From a virus (lineage: Duplodnaviria > Caudoviricetes): a stretch of 64,000 bases of DNA. The stretch is taken from the IMG/VR virus record IMGVR_UViG_3300025789_000018, one strand, 5' to 3'. Positions 1,974 through 20,054 of this stretch are shown piece by piece. A model generated the notes under the pieces. It was given only the letters and a program-made list of their open reading frames with translations. It searched no databases and was not told the origin of the DNA. Position 1 is the first letter of the stretch. Every line of letters begins with the position of its first letter. The position numbers and the translations under genes are program-made.

Positions 1974-4205
1974 TTATGACATCGCTTCCTGTGCGATGAT
2001 GTGAACACCAACGTTTGCTGCGTTAGATCCTGTTGTAATAGCAACAGTCAACTGGTCAGTTAGGTTACCAGCAACAGTGTTATAGAGTGGGAAGAAATAT
2101 GATAGATCGATTTCTTGTAGACCAGAACCACCAGCAGGAGCAGTGAATGCGAACACAACTTCACCACCTGTCATCGCTGTAGCCGAAACGTCTCTCATTG
2201 CAAACGAGTAGTTTGACCCAAGACCGATAGAGTTTACAGTAGCACCATTAGCGAATGTAATACCATTTGCCTGTGTGATTGTACCAGCAGTTGTGTTTGA
2301 TGTTGTGGTGTTTGCTAGTGTGTAGAACTGCGCACCAGTCAATAGAATAGGGCTTGAAGTTGTTGACGTAATCAACTCAACAATACACTGAGCATCGGCT
2401 GATAGATACATCTTCTTTGGTAGTAGCTGACCACGATTGATTAGACCAATCTGGAAAGGAGTACCAGTCATGGATGCAGTATTTGCAATAGGTGCACCAG
2501 TGATAATATTGCCATATGTAATGACTGTTGAGTTACTTGAAGTGATACGTCCAGTTAACCCTGTGTTACTTGTTCCTTGTGCAGGAAAGTAAATGTGGCG
2601 ACCAGTAAATGTATTGTTAGTATACGTGTTGACTTGTGCACCTGTTTGTGTTACAGTAGCAGGAGCAGATAGTGTATATGCTGTTGTGTTCACAAAAGAT
2701 GTAACTGTAGTAGCAGGAATGCCCGTTAAGTTTGACGTAACTGTTTGCCCAACATAAACGTTTGCTGTACTACCAGAAGTGATAACAACAATATTATTAC
2801 CAGAAGTATAGTTACCGATCAATGATGATGTTTGAACACCATCAAATGAGGTATTTGCTGTTGTAAAATAAAGTGTTGAGTTTGTGCTTGTCGAGTTGAT
2901 AGCATTAAATGTTGAGTTACCACTCATTTCGATAGTTGCCATTGGGCGACTTGCCATAGTAAGAACAGGATAACGAGCAGTAGATCCAGAAATCGTTCTC
3001 TTAGGTGCAGTGTTTGCCATACCATATGGATATGTAAAGCCGCGTTGGTCATCTTGTCCGCCTTCAATAACAACAGAAACACCATAGTGAAACATATCGT
3101 TCTGTGAAGCAGTTACGCCAATATTGCGCTGTTCATAACGAACTGGAAGGTTACCAGTACGTGACCATGGGCTTTCTTGTGCTGGAATAACAATATTTCC
3201 AGTTTGTGGATTTGTCGTATTGATCGGACCTTTATTGCCGAAACCGATGTAATGTAGAACAATCCATTCACCATTGATGACTACACCCCAGCGTACCATA
3301 CCAGCCCCGTACCAAGTATATTCTTGCCAGATCATCTGAATACGTGACCAATCAAGAGAGTTGATTGTAGCTTGATCACCATTCCATGCTGGAAGAGGAA
3401 CGCGATAGTCTGTTGGAACACCTGCGTTGGTGCCGTGATTTACTACACCTGCTTGATTGACATCTGAGCGAACGACACAAAACATACCAAATGGATTGGC
3501 TTGTGTTGTGAACTGATAGCTGGTACCAGTTGTCGTTGAAGTTGTTGGTGAACTGATAGCAACTGCGGTACTATTGATGATATTTTGCACAACTGTTGTA
3601 TATGGAATGTTTAATGTTCCATTAGTATCTTTAACAGTAACACTTGGATTGATGTTTGGTCCAGTTACTGGCATACCAATGTACATAGTAGCAGTGCTTG
3701 ACAAACCAGTAATAAGATTTGAGTTTGCTGTACTGTTACCGGTAAATGCCGTAATAGAGTTTGCATACACAGGATCACCTTGTTCCAGGAACACACCATT
3801 GCCATCATCGAAGAAACCTACGCGCTGGCGCTGATTTGTCTGTGCTGCACCAAAGTTCATAGCAGTTGACATGATCATAGTCTTGCCTGGCTGATAACGA
3901 TGATATGGGCGTGTCTGGCGAATAGTTACATCACCACTTGCTGTGCCGAGACGCATACGAACACCACCAGAACCTGGTAGTTGCTGAATAGAAGAGTTGC
4001 CTGAAGGACTAATAACATAGTTTTCCCAGCGCATTGGCTGCGCGCCATATTCAAAGTCTGCTTCGTAAATATTCTGGTGACGCGAAGTGCGAACGCGCCC
4101 TAGATTGTCCATCGAACCAAAAGTTGGTTTAGACGAGATACCTACTGGCTGAATTACAGAGTTGTTTGCTGGTGTTTTAAATGTCATGAAAATCTCCTGG
4201 TACAC
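1974..4205 (-). CDS. Large putative virion structural protein with two copies of the 65-aa N/T/S-rich module
   Basis: DNLGRVRTS..RVGFFDDGNGVFLE..WYGAGMVRWG core resembles a conserved large-myovirus structural family. Has its own late promoter and lies downstream of gp23. Confidence 0.55.
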   Translation of the reverse strand: MYQEIFMTFKTPANNSVIQPVGISSKPTFGSMDNLGRVRTSRHQNIYEADFEYGAQPMRWENYVISPSGNSSIQQLPGSGGVRMRLGTASGDVTIRQTRPYHRYQPGKTMIMSTAMNFGAAQTNQRQRVGFFDDGNGVFLEQGDPVYANSITAFTGNSTANSNLITGLSSTATMYIGMPVTGPNINPSVTVKDTNGTLNIPYTTVVQNIINSTAVAISSPTTSTTTGTSYQFTTQANPFGMFCVVRSDVNQAGVVNHGTNAGVPTDYRVPLPAWNGDQATINSLDWSRIQMIWQEYTWYGAGMVRWGVVINGEWIVLHYIGFGNKGPINTTNPQTGNIVIPAQESPWSRTGNLPVRYEQRNIGVTASQNDMFHYGVSVVIEGGQDDQRGFTYPYGMANTAPKRTISGSTARYPVLTMASRPMATIEMSGNSTFNAINSTSTNSTLYFTTANTSFDGVQTSSLIGNYTSGNNIVVITSGSTANVYVGQTVTSNLTGIPATTVTSFVNTTAYTLSAPATVTQTGAQVNTYTNNTFTGRHIYFPAQGTSNTGLTGRITSSNSTVITYGNIITGAPIANTASMTGTPFQIGLINRGQLLPKKMYLSADAQCIVELITSTTSSPILLTGAQFYTLANTTTSNTTAGTITQANGITFANGATVNSIGLGSNYSFAMRDVSATAMTGGEVVFAFTAPAGGSGLQEIDLSYFFPLYNTVAGNLTDQLTVAITTGSNAANVGVHIIAQEAMS

Positions 4206-4225
4206 GCATAAGTCATTTGATACTG

Positions 4226-4233
4226 TATTTATA
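4226..4233 (-). promoter_or_regulatory. T4-type late promoter TATAAATA
   Basis: Exact consensus, intergenic upstream of 1974..4205. Confidence 0.8.
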
Positions 4234-4251
4234 TCAACAGATCATTAGACA

Positions 4252-4285
4252 TAAAGAAAGGGGGAGAACCTTTCGATTCTCCCCC
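4252..4285 (-). terminator. Intrinsic terminator after gp23/homing endonuclease
   Basis: GGGGGAGAA/TTCTCCCCC stem followed on the minus strand by TTTCTTTAT. Confidence 0.8.
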
Positions 4286-4319
4286 GAAGGTTTGTAATAT
4301 ATTTTATGTTATAGATTAC

Positions 4320-4913
4320 TTATGTAGATTCGACTTTTGATTTTCTAATCTGTTTGTATCCTGGTGTATTGCCACGTTGCTTTCTGCCTTCAGCGTATGC
4401 AAGTTTCAAAGATTCAGATTTCTTTCTCTTGGTTTCTTCTGATTGCTTTTTGCCTTTTTGTGCATTGCTCATATTAACAAGCATCTCTGGTGTTTTGATG
4501 TATGATCGAGAACGTTTAGTTTCTTTGATTTTATCTTTTACTTCCTGTGGTCTAGGTCCGTTTGATTTGCCTGTTTTGGCTTCTGATATCTTTTGACCCA
4601 CTGTTTTTATTTTATCTTCCTCTGTTGTCCAATGTCCGTTTAAATGTTTTGTTAAGTTGTAATACTTTTTGCCAAGTTGATCGTCTGGTATCATCGTTAG
4701 ATATTCATGTTCTATGTTTAACAAATCTTGACGATTTGTATATACTCTGATGATGATTCTGCGTTTGAAGTCCCTCTTTCTTCTATTATAGGAGTTTCTC
4801 ATCCACGTAGAACTACAGATGTAGCTGTCATCTTCTTTGCCCCAATGAGAACCAATGTAATATCTTTTGTGCTTACGATCAAACCAAATGTAAACGAAAC
4901 CATATTTCTGCAT
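4320..4913 (-). mobile_element. Free-standing GIY-YIG (Seg-like) homing endonuclease with NUMOD3-type repeats
   Basis: GFVYIW..RYYIGSH..Y..SS N-terminus. Basic C-terminus KISEAKTG / GKKQSEETKRKKSESLK. Confidence 0.8.
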
Positions 4914-4917
4914 ACAA

Positions 4918-4986
4918 AAATGCTCCCTTGATGTTATCGCGGGAGCATTAATGCTACTTTAGAATACTCTCGCAAGAGTATTTATA
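4918..4986 (-). promoter_or_regulatory. Late promoter (4979-4986) plus hairpins, the second occluding the endonuclease RBS
   Basis: Minus strand: TATAAATA; ATACTCT-TGCG-AGAGTAT; ATGCTCCC-N13-GGGAGCAT containing GGGAG 10 nt before the ATG. Confidence 0.7.
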
Positions 4987-4998
4987 TAAAGTGTATTT

Positions 4999-6387
4999 TT
5001 AAATGATGTTTGCGACAACGAAACGACGGTAGAAAACGTTCTGATTTTGAACGAGCGCACCAGTTGTAGTTGAAGCAGCACCGTTGATTGCACCAGCAGC
5101 GAATGGGTTAGCGACCATGCCGTAGCGTGTCTTGAACCCGATCTTTGGCTGGAAGGTATCCTGACCAACTGCACGAACCATCTGTAGTGGAACGTATGGG
5201 CAGTAGAACACACCAGCATCAAATGCTGATGAACCCTTGTAACCGACAACGGCGTAGTTACCACCAGCATATGGATCGATATAGACGCGAATGCGACCAT
5301 TTAGGACACCAGCAAAGGTGTTGCCTGTATCGTCAACCTGGAGGTTGTTGCTGTTTAGAGCAGGAGCGTAGTCAAGAACACCGGCCATCTGTAGAGCAGA
5401 AGCAACGTCTGATGAACAGATTAGGATGTTACCTTTACCACGACGAGTTGCCTTGGCAATAGCGTTAGCTTCACGTTCGATCTGGAACATTAGGCCCTTG
5501 AACTTTTCAACTGACCAACGGCCGTTTGAGTCAACGTCAAGGTCGAATACGCCTGGGTTAGTAGTATCAACAGCACCTGGGGCTGAAGTTAGAACAACTG
5601 TACGAACGACTTCACGGTTGATTTCAGCAAGGATTTCAGCAGAAAGAATGGTTGAAAGTTCTGTTTCTGCATCTAGACCATGGATTGCTTTTAGATCCTG
5701 GGCTAGTTCGATTGAATATTCAGCCTTTAGAGCGCGTGAGTTTGCAGTAACAGTAACCTTATCGATTGAGAAGGCCATCTGAGCAAAATCGTTGCCTAGT
5801 GTGGTTGAACCTAGCTGTTCAGCATATGAGGTCTGCATACCACCTTCAAAGTTGTAGGTCTGTGAGTTACCTGAAACAATGACAGTGTTTGAAACGCCAT
5901 AGACGCCACCAAGATCGCTTGAAGCACCACCGACAACCTGTGTGTTACCAACAGTTGTATTAGCAGTGATAGAAGCGTTTGAGCCGTAGTATGATGACTG
6001 GGCAGTGTTTGGTTCGTAGTAGAACGCATCGTTGCCAGCCTGGTTTGAATACTGTGGACGTAGAGCGAAGATTAGCCCAGTTGGACCAGTCATTGGCTGA
6101 ACACCGCAGATGTCATAAGCGATTAGGTTAGGCATCGCACGACGAACTAGTGAGATAAGCACTGGATCGTAGTTTAGTGAACCACCTGAAACGTTAGTTG
6201 GGGCTGAGTCTGAAGTTTCTAGAAGTGACTGCATTGAGCCTTGGGCACCAGCTTCGCGTAGAGCGGTTTCGGTGTTTTCAAGTAGCTGTGCAACAACCGA
6301 ACGCTTGTGTGCATCTTGGATCTTTGGAAGATCAGGATGTTCAAGCACTGGGCCCCACTTTGATTGGATCTGTTCGTTGAGTAACAT
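4999..6387 (-). CDS. gp23: Major capsid protein
   Basis: YDPVLISLVRRAMPNLIAYDICGVQPMTGPTGLIFALR, SRALKAEYSIELAQDLKAIHGLDAETEL, YCPYVPLQMVRA, FQPKIGFKTRYG. Confidence 0.99.
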   Translation of the reverse strand: MLLNEQIQSKWGPVLEHPDLPKIQDAHKRSVVAQLLENTETALREAGAQGSMQSLLETSDSAPTNVSGGSLNYDPVLISLVRRAMPNLIAYDICGVQPMTGPTGLIFALRPQYSNQAGNDAFYYEPNTAQSSYYGSNASITANTTVGNTQVVGGASSDLGGVYGVSNTVIVSGNSQTYNFEGGMQTSYAEQLGSTTLGNDFAQMAFSIDKVTVTANSRALKAEYSIELAQDLKAIHGLDAETELSTILSAEILAEINREVVRTVVLTSAPGAVDTTNPGVFDLDVDSNGRWSVEKFKGLMFQIEREANAIAKATRRGKGNILICSSDVASALQMAGVLDYAPALNSNNLQVDDTGNTFAGVLNGRIRVYIDPYAGGNYAVVGYKGSSAFDAGVFYCPYVPLQMVRAVGQDTFQPKIGFKTRYGMVANPFAAGAINGAASTTTGALVQNQNVFYRRFVVANII

Positions 6388-11429: not shown

Positions 11430-11984
11430 TTATTGTGTAGATAGTGTTGATGTTGTACCAGAAACATTGTAGTAATCATATTGGAATGTAACATTGAACT
11501 CTTCAATCTGATCAGTTGCATTCCAATCTAGACCAATAGCAGTGATATCTTGTGGATAAATGCCATCGAATGTATAGGTACGAATTGTATTACCTTGACG
11601 GTCATACTGGTTTACAATAGCAGTAGATTTGTATGCTAATGTATCATTAAATCCAGCAGATCGAATGTTGGTCTGTAGAGAGTTGATCGCATTTGACCAA
11701 TTCTCCAAGGCGTCACGAATTAGAAAGTCTTCATCGTTGACTACAGTTACTTGCCATGGCTGAAACTGACGGTCGCCCGCTAGATTGATTTTACGACCAA
11801 AATAAGGAACTTGATAGTTTCCGAGTGAAACTTCTGGAATAGAAGATGCCTTTACAAGGAAAGGCACCTTAATGTCGGCAACTGTAGTTGCTGGATTAGT
11901 AAACTGTACGCTGAATAGCGACTGTCTAGCGCCTCCATATGTAAGTTGCGATTTGAAGTTATTGATATCAAAACTCTGAGCCAT
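11430..11984 (-). CDS. gp19: Tail tube protein
   Basis: GGAR.SLF.V, VPYFGRKINLAGDRQF.PW.VTV.NDEDF.IRDALE.W, IEEF.VTFQYDY. Confidence 0.98.
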   Translation of the reverse strand: MAQSFDINNFKSQLTYGGARQSLFSVQFTNPATTVADIKVPFLVKASSIPEVSLGNYQVPYFGRKINLAGDRQFQPWQVTVVNDEDFLIRDALENWSNAINSLQTNIRSAGFNDTLAYKSTAIVNQYDRQGNTIRTYTFDGIYPQDITAIGLDWNATDQIEEFNVTFQYDYYNVSGTTSTLSTQ

Positions 11985-12008
11985 TGTTTATTCTCCTATT
12001 TCTTTCTA

Positions 12009-14315
12009 TTAAAACTGTCCAACGATTTCAGAGAAATCAACACCTGACCTTACGGCGACGAAGTTCAACTGGATATAGTTGATTGATCGTGCTGGTTTAA
12101 TATAAATGTCGCCAACGAACTGATTTGCATTGATGACAGCAGGAGTATTGTTCGTAGAATCGCATACTACCTTAAAGTCTTGAATGCCTTGTAGCCCTTG
12201 AACTTGCTTCAAGAAAGGAGTGACAAGCGAAACAAACTGTGCTTGCGTGAATGAGTTGTTGAACTCAAATAGCAAGTTCTGTGCGGCTTGTGATATTGTC
12301 TTTTCAAGAATAATGAATAGACGACGGACGTTGATACGATCAAAGGCAGATGGATTTGATAGTGTTTTATCACCATTCAAGATTGTGCCCTGACCTGGGA
12401 ATGTCACAACTGGATTGACGCCTAGTGGATATAGAATATCGCGATCTGCTTTAGTTGGATTATAAGAAAGTTTAACGATATTCTTGATCTGGCCACGATT
12501 GAAACCAGCAGGTGACCACCATGGATCGCGAACATTATCGGTAAATACGCATAGACCAGCGATGTCTCCATTTAGTGGAACATAACGATATACGTCATTG
12601 TACTTGTCGTACTGATATTTGTAGCCAGAATCCATGACACCATATGAAGATGCTGTTAAGCCAGCACGGAAGTTTTGAACAGAAGCAAGTTCATTACCTA
12701 CGTTGTTGACAACTGATGAAGCATTTGGTGAAATGAACACAACGCAGTCCATACGTGGCTGAGCAATGTTCTGGATTAGATAGTTGCCAAGTAGCGTTCT
12801 ATTTGTTTCGTCTGATTTCCCGGTCATTAGAAGAGAAATCGAAGCGCGTTCGGTTGACTTATAAAGATCATAAGCGGCAGTGATTGCACCGATGTTTGAT
12901 CCAACATTGCTTTCTGAGAAGCCATCTTGACCGCCAGCAAAAGCGATAGTTGTAGGAACAACATCAGTTAGTGTTGTCATATTGGCTGAAGTATTGGCAT
13001 ATGAAGCAGTTGGCAGGTTTGTTACCCAAACATAGTTTGAGTTTTGATTTAAAACATTTAGATAGTAGCTAGTTGCGCCGTCAACGGTTTTCGCATCAGT
13101 TGCGCGTGATAGCCCCTGAAATACTTCTAGGATTTGCCCTGGAACACCAGTAAACTTGCCTAGTGTATCTGCGACAACAACGTGAATGCTATCGACAGCA
13201 GCACTATTGCCATAGTTCTGACCGTAGTAAGAAACCGCTGGTGCGCCAGTTACAGAACTGTAATACTGCCATAGACGACCAACATTGCCTGATGCAACAT
13301 ATGGAGTTGATAGTGTGTATGGAGTATAGAATGAAACGTTTAGGAACTCTTGTGCAGCCTTGAATGTTGCTGAACCGGTTGATCCTGTGAATGCGCTTGA
13401 TAGAACAACTGATGTTGAACTTGGAACTGAAACAATAGTTGTGTTGTTAGCAAGACCAGCAATAGAAGCACTTACAGAGAAACCAATGAGAGCATTTGAC
13501 ATTCCACTTAGGCCAGTAACAGTATTTGACGAAGCGGTAAAAGTTGCGCCAGCATTGATGACTAATGAAGGAGCAGTGCCTTTTGATGCAACTTGTAGTG
13601 TCTGTGTACCAATTGATGAGTTGCCAGCAGTAATCCAATCGCCAACAGTCAATGCTTGATATGCGGCATATGATGCTAGGTTAGCAGCAACAGTAGCAGC
13701 ATTGATGATTACTGAAGTATCGTTGAATGATAATACAGCAGTATTTGAGTTGAAAGCGAATGTGGTATTTGAGATATTCACCAAGTTTGATGAATATGCG
13801 TTAGCAGTATCAACCGTTGAGATTGTAAGGCTGCTACCGATTGCACCTGGATACTTTGCAGTATAGAGATATGTTGGATTTGAAGAAAACTGACCATTGT
13901 TTGCAGCAGTATTATATGCTGTCTGGTTTGTGATATTGAAGTTTGCGTTAACGTTCGAACCCCAATATGTATTACCAGCAACGTTAGCAACAATAGCGCC
14001 ACTTGTATCAGCGATAGCACTAAATGTACCATAACCGTCAGTTGTAGTATCTGTTGTGTTAGCAGCGCGACTTACGTATAGTGAGTTACCATAAGCAAGG
14101 AAGTTTGCGGCTGTGAAAAATGTTTCGGCATTAAGATTGGTTGGTTTACCGAATCTTTTCCACAAAGTTACTTCAGAATTTACTAGAACTAACTGACCGA
14201 TTGGTCCCCAGCGGAATACACCAGCAATAGCGCCAGTTGTAGTCGAAACGGTAGGTACTGTTGTGGTTGCATCGTATTCGGTTACGCTTACACCTGGACT
14301 GACTTGAATTGCCAT
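12009..14315 (-). CDS. gp18: Tail sheath protein with N/T/S-rich insertion domains
   Basis: SPGVSVTE.D, YDKYNDVYRYVPLNGDIAGLC, WWSPAGFNRGQI, FDRINVRRLF, DIYIKPARSINYIQLNFVAVRSGV.F.E. Confidence 0.99.
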   Translation of the reverse strand: MAIQVSPGVSVTEYDATTTVPTVSTTTGAIAGVFRWGPIGQLVLVNSEVTLWKRFGKPTNLNAETFFTAANFLAYGNSLYVSRAANTTDTTTDGYGTFSAIADTSGAIVANVAGNTYWGSNVNANFNITNQTAYNTAANNGQFSSNPTYLYTAKYPGAIGSSLTISTVDTANAYSSNLVNISNTTFAFNSNTAVLSFNDTSVIINAATVAANLASYAAYQALTVGDWITAGNSSIGTQTLQVASKGTAPSLVINAGATFTASSNTVTGLSGMSNALIGFSVSASIAGLANNTTIVSVPSSTSVVLSSAFTGSTGSATFKAAQEFLNVSFYTPYTLSTPYVASGNVGRLWQYYSSVTGAPAVSYYGQNYGNSAAVDSIHVVVADTLGKFTGVPGQILEVFQGLSRATDAKTVDGATSYYLNVLNQNSNYVWVTNLPTASYANTSANMTTLTDVVPTTIAFAGGQDGFSESNVGSNIGAITAAYDLYKSTERASISLLMTGKSDETNRTLLGNYLIQNIAQPRMDCVVFISPNASSVVNNVGNELASVQNFRAGLTASSYGVMDSGYKYQYDKYNDVYRYVPLNGDIAGLCVFTDNVRDPWWSPAGFNRGQIKNIVKLSYNPTKADRDILYPLGVNPVVTFPGQGTILNGDKTLSNPSAFDRINVRRLFIILEKTISQAAQNLLFEFNNSFTQAQFVSLVTPFLKQVQGLQGIQDFKVVCDSTNNTPAVINANQFVGDIYIKPARSINYIQLNFVAVRSGVDFSEIVGQF

Positions 14316-14365
14316 TGTTATCTCCCTTACACTTATCTTGGATTATGAATATGCTTCCTTTGATG

Positions 14366-14373
14366 TATTTATA
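14366..14373 (-). promoter_or_regulatory. Late promoter for gp18
   Basis: Exact TATAAATA. Confidence 0.85.
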
Positions 14374-14391
14374 AAAACACAATACTAGATG

Positions 14392-15537
14392 CTACATCAT
14401 CAACCACTGTCGGAAGGATGACTCGAAATCATCACCCGAATTGGGATCTTCCCATGCTTCATCAACATAACCAAATGGCACAAGATTTTCTTCAATAAGT
14501 CTCTGGTTGTTGGCCAAAACTTCAAGTCTTGCATCGTTGTTGCTTAGTTCTTTGAAATAGTCTTGATGTACTAACCAAGAGAACAGAACGCAACACATAA
14601 CAAGGTCATCATGACTTCCTTCTTCGGCTTGATACTTTGCATTGTGTTCAACAAAGCGATACATTTCTTGAAGAAGATCATAGTCATTGATTATCAGTTT
14701 ATCATTCTCAACCAAACTCTTAAAGTTGGCACAACCAATACGCTTGACTTGTGTTGTGGTACGAACACCCATAGCAAAACGAACACCGCCCATAGTGCCG
14801 CCGATCTTCTGGCCAGCGCGACCTTTAGTCTTTGTTGATAGTACGTTTTCATATTCTAGATCGTGCTGTAGAATGTCCACCACCTGTTGACCGACGTCAT
14901 TGATTTCAACTAGAACATATGCATCATTGTAATGTCGCGACACGTTGTAGATGATCGTAGGATAAACCAAAGATTCGATTTCATTATTACGATATTTTGC
15001 TACCACTCGATATGGTACGTCTGTGATGTCAAACACAATGAATGCAGAATAATCGATACCAGAACCACGGGAGGTATCAACCACAGTTGCATATACACGA
15101 GACTCATCCACATCTTCGTACATATCAACATCATTATTTGTTAGAATAGGATCAATGTAAGTAAGTTGTGCTAGTTTGTTACCATCAATCAGTGTATTAG
15201 ATGAACCAAGGAACTCTGTATTGTGTGACACAACATCATTAGAGTAGTATGTTTCAGATTCTTCAACGCCTACTGGATCATAAACTATATATGGTCCTTC
15301 TGTAAGTAGCGTAATCTTAGATATTTTTTTCCCAGTTATTGTTTGTCCTATTGACAAATCTTTTGCAAAAGAAAATCCACTATCTGTCAAAAAGACATGT
15401 TTAGGTGATACTCTAATAAACGTATCATCAAAATCAAAGCGAATCAAAGTATCTGTAGTTTTTGACACCACACCAGAAAAATCTTTATATCCTAAAGGAG
15501 TTTTTATTCTGTATCTTGTGTTTTCTTTATACTGCAC
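14392..15537 (-). CDS. gp17: Terminase large subunit C-terminal part, preceded by split-intein C-fragment (106 aa)
   Basis: IntC ends VVSHN, followed by TEFLGSSNTLI. Nuclease motifs VDTSRG.G.DYSAF, VLVEIND.G, YQAEEG.HDDLVM. Confidence 0.95.
   Translation of the reverse strand: MQYKENTRYRIKTPLGYKDFSGVVSKTTDTLIRFDFDDTFIRVSPKHVFLTDSGFSFAKDLSIGQTITGKKISKITLLTEGPYIVYDPVGVEESETYYSNDVVSHNTEFLGSSNTLIDGNKLAQLTYIDPILTNNDVDMYEDVDESRVYATVVDTSRGSGIDYSAFIVFDITDVPYRVVAKYRNNEIESLVYPTIIYNVSRHYNDAYVLVEINDVGQQVVDILQHDLEYENVLSTKTKGRAGQKIGGTMGGVRFAMGVRTTTQVKRIGCANFKSLVENDKLIINDYDLLQEMYRFVEHNAKYQAEEGSHDDLVMCCVLFSWLVHQDYFKELSNNDARLEVLANNQRLIEENLVPFGYVDEAWEDPNSGDDFESSFRQWLMM
15220..15537 (-). mobile_element. Split intein C-fragment (IntC), +1 residue Thr
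   Basis: IKTPLGYKDF (A/N2-like), VSPKHVF (block B TxxH-like), VYDP.GVE (block F), YYSNDVVSHN (block G). Confidence 0.92.
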
Positions 15538-16081
15538 TGAAACTTTTACCTGTTACTAGTTTTCTAATACATGCAGATGTTACGCCATATTCTTCTGCAT
15601 ACTTTTTACTAAATGCTTGTTCATATGATAAAACTTTACCATTCTTTTGAACTTTACCCACTCCATCAATATATGGTCTAGTGTTGTATAGTTCAAGTAT
15701 AGCGTCAACATTTTCACCAAGTTTGCTGTGATAAACTTTACCTCTCTTTGCTTCACTTGCTTTAGGTAAAGAATATCCACTGATGCCTTTATTCCAAGGT
15801 GTGGTTCCCTTTTTTACACCGCCAACACCAGGTCTTTTCTTACCTTTTTGTATATCACTAATATATGTCGGAGACATACCCATTCGTTTTGCTATCATTA
15901 CACAAGCGCCATAGTCACCCTGCGAATAGTGTATATCATAGTGTTCTTGTATACTCACGCAAGTAAGATTCATGATATCATTATTGGCATGGTTACCATC
16001 AACATGATGTATTTCATATGATCTACCTTCTGTATCTCTCGGAATAGGACCATACTCTTTTTCATATATTTTTCTATGCAT
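15527..16081 (-). mobile_element. HNH homing endonuclease between the two terminase halves
   Basis: HRKIYE..YGPIP....SYEIHHVDGNHANND.MNL.CVSIQEHYDIH. Own late promoter (16103-16110) and AGGAG RBS. Confidence 0.9.
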
Positions 16082-16102
16082 AAAAATCTCCTAGTTCTAT
16101 TG

Positions 16103-16110
16103 TATTTATA
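16103..16110 (-). promoter_or_regulatory. Late promoter for HNH gene and terL C-part
   Basis: Exact TATAAATA. Confidence 0.8.
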
Positions 16111-16128
16111 AAACCAAGAAACTCTATC

Positions 16129-17010
16129 TCAAAGTGTATTATATAGTTGACTTATAGGAATGCACATATATTCATTTGTTGTTGTATCGTAGACATCTAT
16201 CATAGTTTCTTCTGCAACACATTCAAATTCCTGTCTCCACTGACGTTCACTGGTGTTTTTGATATATTCATCTTTGAATGCTTCGTCGCGACCAGGAACG
16301 TCTCTCCAGTTAACAGAGCAGCGAACGTATGTGTTACGCCCTTGTTCTGAATCGGACCACAACTTATAGAATAAGTTCATCCCATTCGGTGTTGAAGTGA
16401 TGATAACTTTAGTTGTCTTACCTGAAGTGATCGTAGGATAAACTGAAGCGAAGAATGATTCTTGAATGTTGTTGGGAACGAACGCAAACTCATCAAGATA
16501 TAGAAGTGAGAACGTCTTACCACGAACAGCAGAACCACCTGTGGCTGATGCAAGTGCCTTTGATCCGTTCTCTAGTTCAATGTCGCCTTCATTCCAACGC
16601 TTCACGCCTTGCTGTAACCAGTTGGGAAGATGTTCAAACATCAACTTCACACGGTTAAGGATTTCTCGTGCCTGCATGTCTTTGTTGGCAAGAATAGCAA
16701 TAGCATAGTTTTTATTGAAAAGAAGTTTATGAAGCATGTAAGCGCAAACTGTAGTTGTCTTACCGCACTGGCGAAGTAGTTTACAAATAGAGAAACGATT
16801 TGTCTCAAATGTATTGACCATATTCTCCTGAAATGGCCAAAGATTGAAGTTGATTAGACCGTCGTCAACACTAACAATCTTACAGTATGTTTTGATAAAG
16901 TAAATCTGATCTTCAGCACATCTTTTAAACTCTTTTACCTTATCTAAATCCCACTCAACAGGAACGTTGACGGCTTTTAGATTTTGGTTATTATTATAGT
17001 ATTCTGCCAT
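16129..17010 (-). CDS. gp17: Terminase large subunit N-terminal ATPase part, ending in split-intein N-fragment (30 aa)
   Basis: Walker A region LLRQCGKTT, ILANK...AREIL, Walker B LLYLDEFAFVP, IITSTPNGMN.FYKLW, ending QEFE|CVAEETMIDV. Confidence 0.95.
   Translation of the reverse strand: MAEYYNNNQNLKAVNVPVEWDLDKVKEFKRCAEDQIYFIKTYCKIVSVDDGLINFNLWPFQENMVNTFETNRFSICKLLRQCGKTTTVCAYMLHKLLFNKNYAIAILANKDMQAREILNRVKLMFEHLPNWLQQGVKRWNEGDIELENGSKALASATGGSAVRGKTFSLLYLDEFAFVPNNIQESFFASVYPTITSGKTTKVIITSTPNGMNLFYKLWSDSEQGRNTYVRCSVNWRDVPGRDEAFKDEYIKNTSERQWRQEFECVAEETMIDVYDTTTNEYMCIPISQLYNTL
16132..16221 (-). mobile_element. Split intein N-fragment (IntN, 30 aa)
   Basis: CVAEETMIDVYDTTTNEYMCIPISQLYNTL: block A (C1..T.I.V) and I.I.QLY motif. 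Confidence 0.9.
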
Positions 17011-17447
17011 TATTCACCTTTGAGCAGTTTGTGCAACTCAGCGGTTGTTCCCACAAATAGGTTGTTAGTTACATTACCAGTAGTCTTTTCTGCTTCTTCT
17101 GGTGTTTTGTCCATCTTCTGGATCTCTTTGACTTGCTTGCTTAAGTTCAATAGCTTCTGGTTAGCTGTCACCAAGCCATTCACCAATGTGCCAACAACTT
17201 CGTATGCAGATGCCGACTGAGACTGCTTTGCGAACTCCAGCATGTCGGTGAGTGCTTCCTGACCAGCTTCGATGATGTCATAGAGATTCTTACGCGCAAA
17301 GTCGTAATCGTTCTCTGCATTGGTTTGCGATTCGTCTTGAACAAGAATAGCCTGTGTAGGCAACTTCTTTGTCGGAAACCCAACCGAGTCGTTCATTGGG
17401 CTAAGGCCTAGTTTTTGTGAAATGATTTGATTATTCGCTATTTTCAT
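17010..17447 (-). CDS. gp16: Terminase small subunit
   Basis: DYDFARKNLY.II..GQEAL..ML..A.QS....AYEVV, VTNNLFVGTTAEL.KLLK. Confidence 0.95.
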   Translation of the reverse strand: MKIANNQIISQKLGLSPMNDSVGFPTKKLPTQAILVQDESQTNAENDYDFARKNLYDIIEAGQEALTDMLEFAKQSQSASAYEVVGTLVNGLVTANQKLLNLSKQVKEIQKMDKTPEEAEKTTGNVTNNLFVGTTAELHKLLKGE

Positions 17448-17450
17448 ATA

Positions 17451-18464
17451 TCACCCGATGTTTGTAAACCAATCGTAAATGAAGCCATAGTTGCTGTTAG
17501 CTTCAATCTGAGACAGTGGAATAGAAATAGATGCATTGCTTGTTGGATTGCCATTTGCATCAAGACCAGGAGTAATCTGTACATATTCTGCAATAAGAGA
17601 GTTGCCAGAAGTTGTAAAGGTTACGTTAGAGTTTAAACCAGTATATATGTTGCTAAGTGAAACCGATGTCGTATTTACCGCGGTTACTGTTGTATTTGCT
17701 GGCAATCCTTGAACGTTTGCTGTAATCCTAGAACCAACATCGATAGCATCAATATCGGCATTTGTAAAGATTGTGTTACTGCCGTTACTGATTGTGCCAA
17801 CAAAAGTATCACTATCACCAGATACACGGAAGTTGATATCAACAGTATTGATGACGCCCTGTGTTGAGATTGGACCAAAGATATAGCCTTTGAGAACGAA
17901 CTGAAGTTCCCAAATGATAGCATAGCGGTCATTGAAACTGGCTTCGTAAGTATCTTCATACTGAATGTTTTTTAAAACAACAGGAATATCCATCACAATA
18001 CCCATTTCTGGAATGAGATTGATCGCTGTTGTCCACTCTGGCTTGAAGAATGGCAAAATCTGTTCTACAATGCGACAAGCATCATCGGCGTTTCTAGCAA
18101 GAATCGATAGATCGATGTTAAAGTTGTACGGAACAGGATTGTACTGATACCCGAGTGTGTTGCCCATATTTGTTAGATTGACATTCTTGCCAACCGTGTT
18201 TAACTTACGCGATGAATCGTATTCAACACTTTTGATTTCAAAAGACATTCTAGGTAGAACCTGATTGACCTGGCGTAGCAAGTCTGGGTTCTCTTGAAGT
18301 CGAACGAGATAACGATCTTTTGGACCATATGATAGTGGCACTTTCAGCGTATCAACAGCATCTCCTGCTTCATTGACGCGATCAATGAGAATGTCATTGA
18401 ACAACGAACCAAACAGAACAATATACTTTCTGATACTGCCAAAATAAAAGTTGTTGCCAAACAT
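17451..18464 (-). CDS. gp15: Tail sheath stabiliser/completion protein with C-terminal 65-aa module insertion
   Basis: FY.GSIRKYIVLFGSLFNDI, KVPLSYGPK, LPRMSFEI....YD..RK, PVPYN, EQILPFFKP. Confidence 0.95.
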   Translation of the reverse strand: MFGNNFYFGSIRKYIVLFGSLFNDILIDRVNEAGDAVDTLKVPLSYGPKDRYLVRLQENPDLLRQVNQVLPRMSFEIKSVEYDSSRKLNTVGKNVNLTNMGNTLGYQYNPVPYNFNIDLSILARNADDACRIVEQILPFFKPEWTTAINLIPEMGIVMDIPVVLKNIQYEDTYEASFNDRYAIIWELQFVLKGYIFGPISTQGVINTVDINFRVSGDSDTFVGTISNGSNTIFTNADIDAIDVGSRITANVQGLPANTTVTAVNTTSVSLSNIYTGLNSNVTFTTSGNSLIAEYVQITPGLDANGNPTSNASISIPLSQIEANSNYGFIYDWFTNIG

Positions 18465-19183
18465 TAAATCACATCTCCGAATGGATTGGTTATACTAAAG
18501 TCCACAAACGTATTTGCCAAAGCTACAAACTCTTCATTCTGTGTTGATGGATCGATTTCATCTAGAACAAAAGTTTCGTTGACAATATCATAACCAGCTT
18601 CGGTAATAAGATCGTAACTTGCTTCGGTGAGATACCAGAAGTTACTGTCTGCCACTGAATAGTTCTGTTGGATCGAATCGATGTTTGCGATGCCAGTGTT
18701 GAACTGTTCCGAATCGTAGTTGAACTTCTCTAGCTGCAACTCAAAGTATTGTAGCGATCCAGTCTGGTAGAAGGATCTTTCATGTTCAACGAACTTGATT
18801 TCAAAAATACCAGTTGTGAATGGAAAGTAAACAAGATCACCTTCTTGTGGGCGAATCAAGTTGTATATGCTACCAATGTCTTGTGCGAACCTGCGACGAC
18901 TCACCGATAGTGTAAGTTTGTCTGCTACGTTTAGACCGAACTTGCTGAGTAGATCGCCTTCACCTTGGAAACCTTCATAATCATTAATATACATTTCAAG
19001 TGGAATAGCCACGTTAAATGAAGACGTTGGTGCTTCATCAAATAACTTATCAATATAGTTTGTTGTTCTCGGAAGATAATAGCAATCGATACCAAAAATC
19101 TGAATCATTTCGTCTGCTAGATTCTGTAGCAGATTCTGCTCAGGATTGTAATCAGAGTTTCGAAAGAAAAACGATGTCGGCAC
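18464..19183 (-). CDS. gp14: Neck protein (GTG start)
   Basis: EQNL.QNL.DE.IQIFG.DCYYLPR, GEGDLLSKFGL, RPQEGDLVYFP, FEIKFVEHE..FYQ.G. Confidence 0.95.
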   Translation of the reverse strand: MPTSFFFRNSDYNPEQNLLQNLADEMIQIFGIDCYYLPRTTNYIDKLFDEAPTSSFNVAIPLEMYINDYEGFQGEGDLLSKFGLNVADKLTLSVSRRRFAQDIGSIYNLIRPQEGDLVYFPFTTGIFEIKFVEHERSFYQTGSLQYFELQLEKFNYDSEQFNTGIANIDSIQQNYSVADSNFWYLTEASYDLITEAGYDIVNETFVLDEIDPSTQNEEFVALANTFVDFSITNPFGDVI

Positions 19184-19283: not shown

Positions 19284-19988
19284 TTAGGTAGTATATCCAG
19301 CATCTATTAGTGTATTCCACTTTTCAGTGTTTGGTTTAGCCATCTTTCTGATGCCATCTTTGTACAATGCTCGTCTGCCACTCATAGAATCTGATTGTTT
19401 CTTTTTTTGATCTTCACTCTTCGGAACATCTTTCATTCTATTAGAAACCGAAACTCTATGATTTTCAGATTTATTATACTCAATCATTCTTTCTCTGGAT
19501 GCCTGTATATCCTCTTGTGTTTGAGGAGGAAGTATTCTTTTTGACATCCCTATATTAAACTTTTCAATATATGAAGGATTGGATTTCTGTTCTAAAGCTT
19601 TTCTTCTTATCTTTTCTTTATGTTCTTTTGTCTTAGCAATGCCTTTGCCCGTTGTGTTCTTTTGTATTTTGGTAAGAACTCCCTTTTCATAATCTATAAA
19701 CTTTGCTGTGTTTCCACCATCTAATCCGTTCTCTTCTCTTAAGTTTGCCCATAGATCAGATTCAACTATATTATTTTCTTTTGAGAACTTTAAAGCAAAC
19801 TCTGTCGCTTCATGTTGATTTTTGAAATGAAACGTTTCTAGCGTAATATGCTTTGCATTATGTTTGCTTAAGTGTGATTTCCAATAAACACCAGAACCGC
19901 CATATGCATATGGATTATCTTGCTCTGTTTTGCCAAAATACTTTAAATCACAGTGAGAACACTGTTTGACGTATAGATAAATATTCAT
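19284..19988 (-). mobile_element. Free-standing GIY-YIG-like (Seg-type) homing endonuclease; likely start at 19988 (MNIYLYVK)
   Basis: IYLYVKQC.HC.LKYFGKT...NPY.YGGSGVYW..HL.KH, WANLREENGLDGG. AGGAG RBS precedes 19988. Confidence 0.8.
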
Positions 19989-20054
19989 GCTGATTCTCCT
20001 GCATAGAGTTAGTGTGGGTGGATGCTCTAACATCGTGACCCACAACTACTTATA
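19989..20054 (-). promoter_or_regulatory. Structured leader (late promoter, stem-loop, CTAAC, AGGAG, ATCAGC), copy 1
   Basis: TATAAGTA GTT GTGGGT..ACCCAC A CTAAC N7 AGGAG AATCAGC ATG. Homologous copy at 56105-56177. Confidence 0.65.

Follow-up and report, generated by a model that had tools for sequence, protein, structure and literature searches.

Two kinds of system close to the locus described here are already known. Fractured genes were described by Dassa, London, Stoddard, Schueler-Furman and Pietrokovski (2009; PMC2677866), who list one gp17 terminase locus from Lake Gatun, and atypically split inteins are known from the large terminase subunit (TerL), namely the Cat, AceL-TerL and GOS-TerL inteins (Thiel 2014; Bachmann and Mootz 2015; Stevens 2018; PDB 6DSL), summarised in PMC11766414 and PMC13014065. 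At their splice junctions, AceL and Cat carry Cys1/Cys+1 and GOS carries Ser1/Cys+1, while the PolB16 intein carries Ser1/Ser+1 (PMC11766414, PMC13014065, PMC10189870). Here, we describe the terL gene in a 64,000-nucleotide (nt) stretch of the virus record IMGVR_UViG_3300025789_000018 (hereafter, the window), which comes from a freshwater T4-like phage. This gene is split by an intein with a short N-terminal fragment (IntN) and a long C-terminal fragment (IntC), with an HNH endonuclease gene lying between the two halves. In the open reading frame (ORF) list of the window, three consecutive minus-strand ORFs (P0001, P0002 and P0003) span positions 14392–17010.

We consider it probable (roughly 0.85) that terL in this phage is a fractured gene, in which a split class-1 intein together with a free-standing HNH endonuclease gene forms a mobile element inserted at QEFE/TEFLGS (the slash marks the insertion point). 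An original prediction, made by a reader of the sequence alone, had placed terL in two ORFs with an HNH gene between them and had proposed an atypical split of 30 and 106 aa; the ORF list and Pfam agree with the former, with coordinates and lengths exact, and the fragments do comprise 30 and 106 codons in separate ORFs.

Identity of the split intein

The first 125 residues of P0003, the protein in which IntC precedes the C-terminal part of TerL (IntC-TerL-C), were compared to the PDB using phmmer and matched 6DSL_B ("Consensus engineered intein CatC") with an E-value of 2.7e-10; gp41-1 was also matched by this region in the same search, albeit weakly. An AlphaFold model of IntC built on 21 relatives (predicted local distance difference test, pLDDT, of 73) again returned 6DSL_B first in a Foldseek search of the PDB (E 1e-6, TMt 0.78, 33% identity), and the top 50 matches were all inteins, BIL or hedgehog HINT domains. 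The kinship to AceL-TerL and GOS-TerL that had been claimed for this locus is thus borne out by matches to CatC in both sequence and fold. An exhaustive search of cluster representatives yielded 642 related clusters at 50% identity, mostly IntC-TerL-C proteins.

The locus agrees with a class-1 intein (HINT) in Cys1, block B, blocks F/G, the +1 residue and the fold. Among the 21 IntC relatives, His47 (block B), Asp87 (block F) and Ser104-His105-Asn106 are invariant, and Ser44 and Thr107 (+1) of P0003 are kept in at least 90%. The block B motif T/S-x-x-H is present as S44-P-K-H47, and the C terminus of IntC bears the block G His-Asn (His105 and Asn106). In IntN, the residues invariant in 17 relatives are Cys1, the block A Thr (intein position 6), Asp12 and Ile23, and the IntN lengths of relatives fall between 30 and 33 aa. 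IntC contains zero cysteines. The IntN homologues were gathered from related loci and not by direct search; a homologue search with residues 225–293 of P0001 returned the query itself only, and IntN with nine extein residues, too short a query, gave no match when compared to the PDB via phmmer.

The predicted complex between IntN and IntC scored 0.74, compared to 0.00 for the best of three controls, a mark that 58 of 80 solved complexes attained, as did 2 of 110 mismatched pairs. The runs share at least 83% of contacts, with a partner pLDDT of at least 70, and the contacts join IntC residues 41–48, 83–89 and 104–107 to the stretch from N-extein E13 through IntN, setting IntN against blocks B, F and G of IntC. 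Because a like complex (6DSL) has already been solved, this pass may show likeness to that structure, and is not taken as independent evidence. The length of IntN and its ...DLY.. tail are compatible with an S2 split after the first helix (PMC13014065), the complex model being read for contacts only.

Threonine at the +1 position

The first residue of the C-extein in this phage is Thr (ACA codon), as the original prediction had noted. Using a word-indexed search, Thr+1 was found in 22 of the 24 clusters at 90% identity that share the same IntC-TerL-C; Cys+1 is predominant among the members of the 642-cluster set at the xFLGS site. Over 119 IntC rows, the +1 residue is Cys in 92, Thr in 26 and Ser in one. 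The tree of these 119 sequences (~109 columns, quick search, with its deep order unresolved) groups 27 rows, comprising 25 with Thr and two with Cys, into a Thr+1 branch (SH-aLRT 90), and a single other Thr+1 row lies outside it. Judged from these sequences, Thr+1 is a clade trait, held by ~25 clusters at 90% identity that form one branch in a family dominated by Cys+1. Loci with the GOS-like combination of Ser1/Cys+1 were also found (L030 and L039).

The sequence QEFE-T-EFLGS occurs in intein-free TerLs of the same lineage (P0222, P0224, P0276, P0294 and ~40 IMG/VR loci), and the intein-free TerL P0178 likewise carries Thr here; in the majority of other T4-like aquatic TerLs, the sequence is QEFE-C-EFLGS. 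Given that natural intein-free TerLs carry Thr there, the identity of the +1 residue goes with the lineage of the extein, and QEFETEFLGS, the product originally predicted, is a sequence that TerLs have in nature. The reconstructed empty junction is GAATTTGAA-ACAGAGTTCCTTGG, and the predicted tryptic junction peptide of the spliced TerL is QEFETEFLGSSNTLIDGNK. The EFE/xEFLG insertion site, also part of the original prediction, is the one used by the retrieved members of the wider family.

The Cys1/Thr+1 combination makes up 12% of inteins, with Mxe GyrA and Neq Pol listed as Thr+1 examples (PMC11766414), and its chemistry is ordinary for inteins. The novelty that had been claimed for Thr+1 therefore holds in part: its pairing with an atypical TerL split is uncharacterised in the accessible literature, but the trait is clade-wide, and Cys1/Thr+1 is common among inteins.

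Persistence of the locus and its relatives

The three-gene layout, with identical junctions, is present on independent contigs, and the identical IntC-TerL-C protein was read from 16 contigs. The 2.6-kb locus was found at 77–100% of words in 20 freshwater runs from 19 studies (three of which may be the source of the window itself), giving ~17 independent freshwater runs dated 2012–2017. Its occurrence on independent contigs and in ~17 further runs therefore indicates that the layout is not an assembly or sequencing artefact.

The same three-gene layout is seen in deeply diverged relatives. The HNH protein is 56% identical to its counterpart from the corresponding position in L001, and at least 13 related loci have a homologue at this position; in L028, a GIY-YIG gene stands where the HNH gene is found in other loci. 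The endonuclease gene has been deleted in L013 (Thr+1; 750–816) and L033 (Cys+1; 3454–3490) and is reduced to a 3′ remnant in L026 (3305–3480), with separate IntN and IntC ORFs kept in all three. As these ORFs survive the loss of the endonuclease, the intein halves appear to be retained for their own sake.

No isolate with this locus is known and its sequences are metagenomic only, as could be expected if the terminase gene were no longer functional, the phage being defective or its population decaying, and the intein halves were relics. This we give only a slim chance, given that all three ORFs and the surrounding structural genes are intact, and that the arrangement is unchanged on many contigs and in runs of several years. 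It is also conserved in deeply diverged relatives with the rate of non-synonymous substitution (dN) below that of synonymous substitution (dS), and a cultured phage, Vibrio phage VP-1, has a related split.

Two further arrangements were noted among related loci. In L002 and L003 (1492–3387), the P-loop of the TerL-N half (631 aa) is interrupted by a contiguous LAGLIDADG intein (...SGK/ALPLDE...THN/TITT...), which brings the inteins of terL to two in these loci, the split one included. In L004, a Logan contig (SRR23823970), IntC-TerL-C (Cys+1) lies at 4001–5125, with neither TerL-N nor an endonuclease within 4 kb upstream; the upstream genes are on the opposite strand, and the terL halves may sit far apart in that genome.

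Layout and expression of the locus

The component parts of the locus are given in Table 1. The insertion point falls close to where the ATPase domain of TerL ends, with one Pfam domain on either side of it, and a 47-nt spacer separates the IntN stop from the HNH gene. The N-extein can be aligned with the intein-free TerL P0178 as far as the junction, and the C-extein and the corresponding part of P0178 share 97% identity over the region searched. The neighbouring genes form the usual T4-type module, with the small terminase subunit (TerS; 17447..17010) and a gp15-like protein upstream and the tail sheath (14315..12009) downstream. Also among the structural genes is a minus-strand ORF of 253 aa (19284–20045) with a GIY-YIG-like motif (...YFGKT...YGGSG...), possibly a free-standing homing endonuclease.

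Table 1. Component parts of the split terL locus in the window (RBS, ribosome-binding site).
Feature	Position	Strand	Description
P0001	17010..16129	minus	293 aa; ends ...WRQEFE, then CVAEET...LYNTL, stop; Terminase_6N 5.3e-25 (Pfam), phrog_5989 1.8e-63
P0002	16081..15527	minus	184 aa; PF13392 HNH_3 6.8e-12; phrog_12324 "intron-like DNA endonuclease" 7e-27
P0003	15537..14392	minus	381 aa, GTG start; MQYKEN... to ...DVVSHN, then TEFLGS; Terminase_6C 5.9e-15 (Pfam)
terL N-extein	16222..17010	minus	TerL residues 1–263, ATPase domain, ending ...RQEFE
IntN	16129..16221	minus	30 codons (16221..16132); Cys1 = TGT 16221..16219; TGA stop 16131..16129
Empty-junction copy	16112..16135	minus	Overlaps IntN stop; F-E-I-E-F-L-G in another frame
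Late promoter TATAAATA	16103..16110	minus	T4-type; precedes HNH gene
HNH RBS AGGAG	16092..16088	minus	Own RBS of HNH gene
Free-standing HNH_3 homing-endonuclease gene	15527..16081	minus	184 aa; frame differs from terL parts
IntC	15220..15537	minus	106 codons, GTG start, ends ...VVSHN; 11-nt overlap with HNH stop
terL C-extein	14392..15219	minus	Thr+1 (ACA 15219..15217), nuclease domain, stop codon; TerL residues 264–538

The HNH gene lies in a different frame from the two terL halves. These halves share a frame, and phage group I introns often carry HNH genes, both of which would also suit halves joined by a group I intron with an HNH ORF, by read-through or by frameshift, with no protein splicing. 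However, a scan of positions 13500–18000 against Rfam, introns included, found no family at E <= 1, for which reason the intron reading was dropped, and ten stop codons interrupt the terL frame between the halves. Moreover, the two ends of the insert code for a HINT domain that is conserved and under protein-level purifying selection, which an intron would not need, and the endonuclease-free relative L033 still has a separate stop and start. RNA splicing or read-through, which the original prediction had set down as the competing route, is disfavoured by the empty Rfam scan and the in-frame stops; joining at the level of RNA or translation appears very unlikely from the sequence, and we give it hardly any credence.

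Motifs of the TATAAATA type number 17 in the window, compared to 3.5 expected, and 16 of these are on the coding strand. The copy preceding the HNH gene follows directly on a copy of the empty junction, an order that recurs in relatives. IntC-TerL-C is without a late promoter of its own, and the HNH gene runs past the start of IntC (for 11 nt here, and for 8 nt in both L001 and L002); therefore, this half is likely to share a transcript with the HNH gene and to be translated by coupling to it.

Predicted trans-splicing

As we envisage it, two polypeptides would be produced late in infection, TerL(1-263)-IntN(30 aa) and IntC(106 aa)-TerL(264-538), with the C half translated by coupling to the HNH reading frame. 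The short IntN would dock into the incomplete HINT fold of IntC, upon which the Cys1 thioester would be attacked by the hydroxyl of Thr+1 to form a branched oxyester. Cyclisation of Asn106 and an O-to-N shift would then yield the full-length TerL (...QEFE-TEFLGS...). The HNH enzyme, in turn, would cut the intein-free terL alleles of co-infecting relatives, leading to the element being copied in.

Split genes that work without ligation do exist in T4-like phages, as cited for nrdA of phage Aeh1 (PMC2677866), and the intein halves might similarly only dock non-covalently, or cleave without ligating, to leave a two-chain motor like the mobE-split NrdA of that phage. The position of the insertion between the two Pfam domains of TerL would suit such a motor, and Thr is a poorer nucleophile than Cys. 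Docking alone, however, needs none of Cys1, the block B His, the block F Asp, the terminal His-Asn or the +1 Thr/Cys, all of which are kept across relatives of 35–55% identity, and the closest solved relative, Cat, is a fast-splicing intein (PMC11766414). On this balance, we regard a motor of two unligated chains as unlikely.

Several points nonetheless weigh against trans-splicing of a fractured terL. The spliced TerL is a predicted product, and a second intact terL may lie outside the 64-kb window, although T4-like phages normally have one terL. The GTG start of IntC has a weak AGGT upstream, leaving the level of expression of the C half uncertain. The dN/dS of IntC (~0.12–0.27 over ten pairs) is a rough ratio, as dS is saturated (>1 or undefined) in all pairs. 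None of the Pfam intein models reach E 0.1 on IntC; PF14890 is a faint precomputed match on some relatives. No Thr+1 is found among the characterised atypically split TerL inteins in the accessible literature, the make-up of the Cat consensus alignment aside, and the efficiency of splicing with Thr+1, a secondary alcohol, is assumed by analogy with Mxe GyrA and Neq Pol (PMC11766414).

Intein-free alleles and signs of homing

Intein-free alleles are found in close relatives and signs of exchange are seen at the insertion site, as would be looked for in an actively homing element. P0178 (L009), a TerL of 544 aa, is encoded on 24 contigs, and its DNA is ~90% identical to the exteins of the window. 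The closest intein-free alleles include L009–L011 (junction near 3800); in L009, the −1 codon has changed from GAA to CTG, with all three bases differing, to read QEFL/T. The nearest virus record, G001 (= L040/L092), has 32% of the 31-mers of the window in common and is without the intein; at its site, GAA ACA has become TGT TGT, which reads QEFC/CEFLGS. QEFE/T is kept in more distant intein-free alleles. From these sequences, the altered −1 and +1 codons in the closest intein-free alleles may represent escape from the endonuclease.

Compared to G001 over positions 11683–18482 of the window, identity is 94.5% upstream of terL (gp15, TerS), 77.9% in the N-extein, and ~98–99% from ~300 nt past the junction. 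This break in identity is the pattern that would be expected of homing with co-conversion of the flanks, and points to diverged DNA on either side having come in together with the element. The break is clear against G001 only; in comparison to L009, a simple co-conversion tract around the junction was not evident, with mismatches evenly spread.

A conserved copy of the empty junction

At the IntN stop codon, and overlapping it, is a sequence that agrees with the reconstructed empty junction (21 nt) in 18 positions, the best match on either strand of the 64-kb window (all others being <=16). This copy (TTTGAx-NNN-GARTTYYTWGG) is found at the same place, directly before TATAAATA, in most related loci (L001, L002, L013–L027, L028, L033 and L036), where it matches the junction of its own locus at 14–19 of 24 nt. 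The middle codon of the copy is TGT in the three Cys+1 loci, and ACx or decayed in Thr+1 loci. As the copy occurs with HNH and GIY-YIG (L028) endonucleases alike, it cannot be tied to the HNH enzyme specifically.

The copy could be a scar left by an endonuclease cassette entering a contiguous intein. In I-TevI, a homing-site mimic serves as an operator. By a similar arrangement, the copy here might be a homing-site mimic or operator bound by the endonuclease, which would in this way repress transcription of its own gene from the late promoter, the TerL-C half on the same transcript included; separately, the Thr+1 clade might provide the first atypically split intein with a Cys-free long fragment and scar. 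We put this forward tentatively and hold it to be doubtful.

Comparison with known systems

If terL is joined as predicted, a freshwater phage population that occurs in nature and persists there would rely on protein trans-splicing for an essential motor gene present in a single copy. The family to which the intein belongs shows nearly all of the proposed life-cycle stages, including contiguous mini-inteins, fractured genes with HNH or GIY-YIG endonucleases, decaying endonucleases, endonuclease-free split inteins, and intein-free alleles with altered target codons. Inteins with a short IntN serve in protein semisynthesis, where the characterised AceL, GOS and Cat need Cys+1. To judge by its sequences, the Thr+1 branch would leave a Thr scar and would allow a recombinant partner without an obligatory Cys, the only one needed being Cys1 on the synthetic peptide.

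With the fractured genes of Dassa et al. (2009), this locus shares the one-strand order of N part-IntN, spacer, endonuclease and IntC-C part, as well as the length of the spacer (47 nt here, 27–51 nt there; PMC2677866). The endonuclease is HNH_3 here, in contrast to the GIY-YIG or Vsr-like enzymes of those genes, in which HNH was predicted but unobserved (PMC2677866). IntC overlaps the end of the endonuclease gene here, and most of the split inteins described there are canonical, with a long IntN (PMC2677866). The match to fractured genes made in the original prediction thus holds for gene order and spacer length, but not for the type of endonuclease.

The closest likeness in a cultured phage is to Vibrio phage VP-1 (MH363700, Ackermannviridae; L005, 843–4185), whose terL is split at the equivalent site, with a short IntN and an IntC of ~110 aa in separate ORFs, which overlap in VP-1. 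Unlike here, VP-1 has Cys+1, an IntN fused in frame to a GIY-YIG endonuclease, and a second mini-intein in the P-loop. Its record lists a "terminase large subunit" (738 aa) and a "terminase like family protein", the second annotated from a later start.

In its chemistry, the predicted transfer of the (thio)ester to the hydroxyl of Thr+1 is like that in Mxe GyrA (Cys1/Thr+1) and the Neq Pol split intein (Ser1/Thr+1; PMC11766414). These differ in their unrelated hosts and sites and in being canonically split or contiguous, and their homology is limited to the HINT fold.

Like Cat, AceL and GOS, the intein described here resides in the TerL of a T4-like phage, with fragments of similar length (IntN of 25–37 aa there and 30 aa here; IntC of 104–115 aa there and 106 aa here). 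As in AceL and Cat, the chemistry would start at Cys1, and IntC is ~33% identical to CatC. The EFE/xEFLG insertion site is common to this locus and the retrieved Cys+1 members of the family, and is presumably that of AceL and GOS themselves. It differs from the characterised AceL, GOS and Cat in having Thr in place of Cys at +1, in its Cys-free IntC and in its position on a separate branch of the IntC tree. Set beside these systems, what is new is modest, consisting of an abundant, uncharacterised Cys1/Thr+1 branch with a Cys-free IntC, an HNH endonuclease in the middle position, and a conserved copy of the junction.

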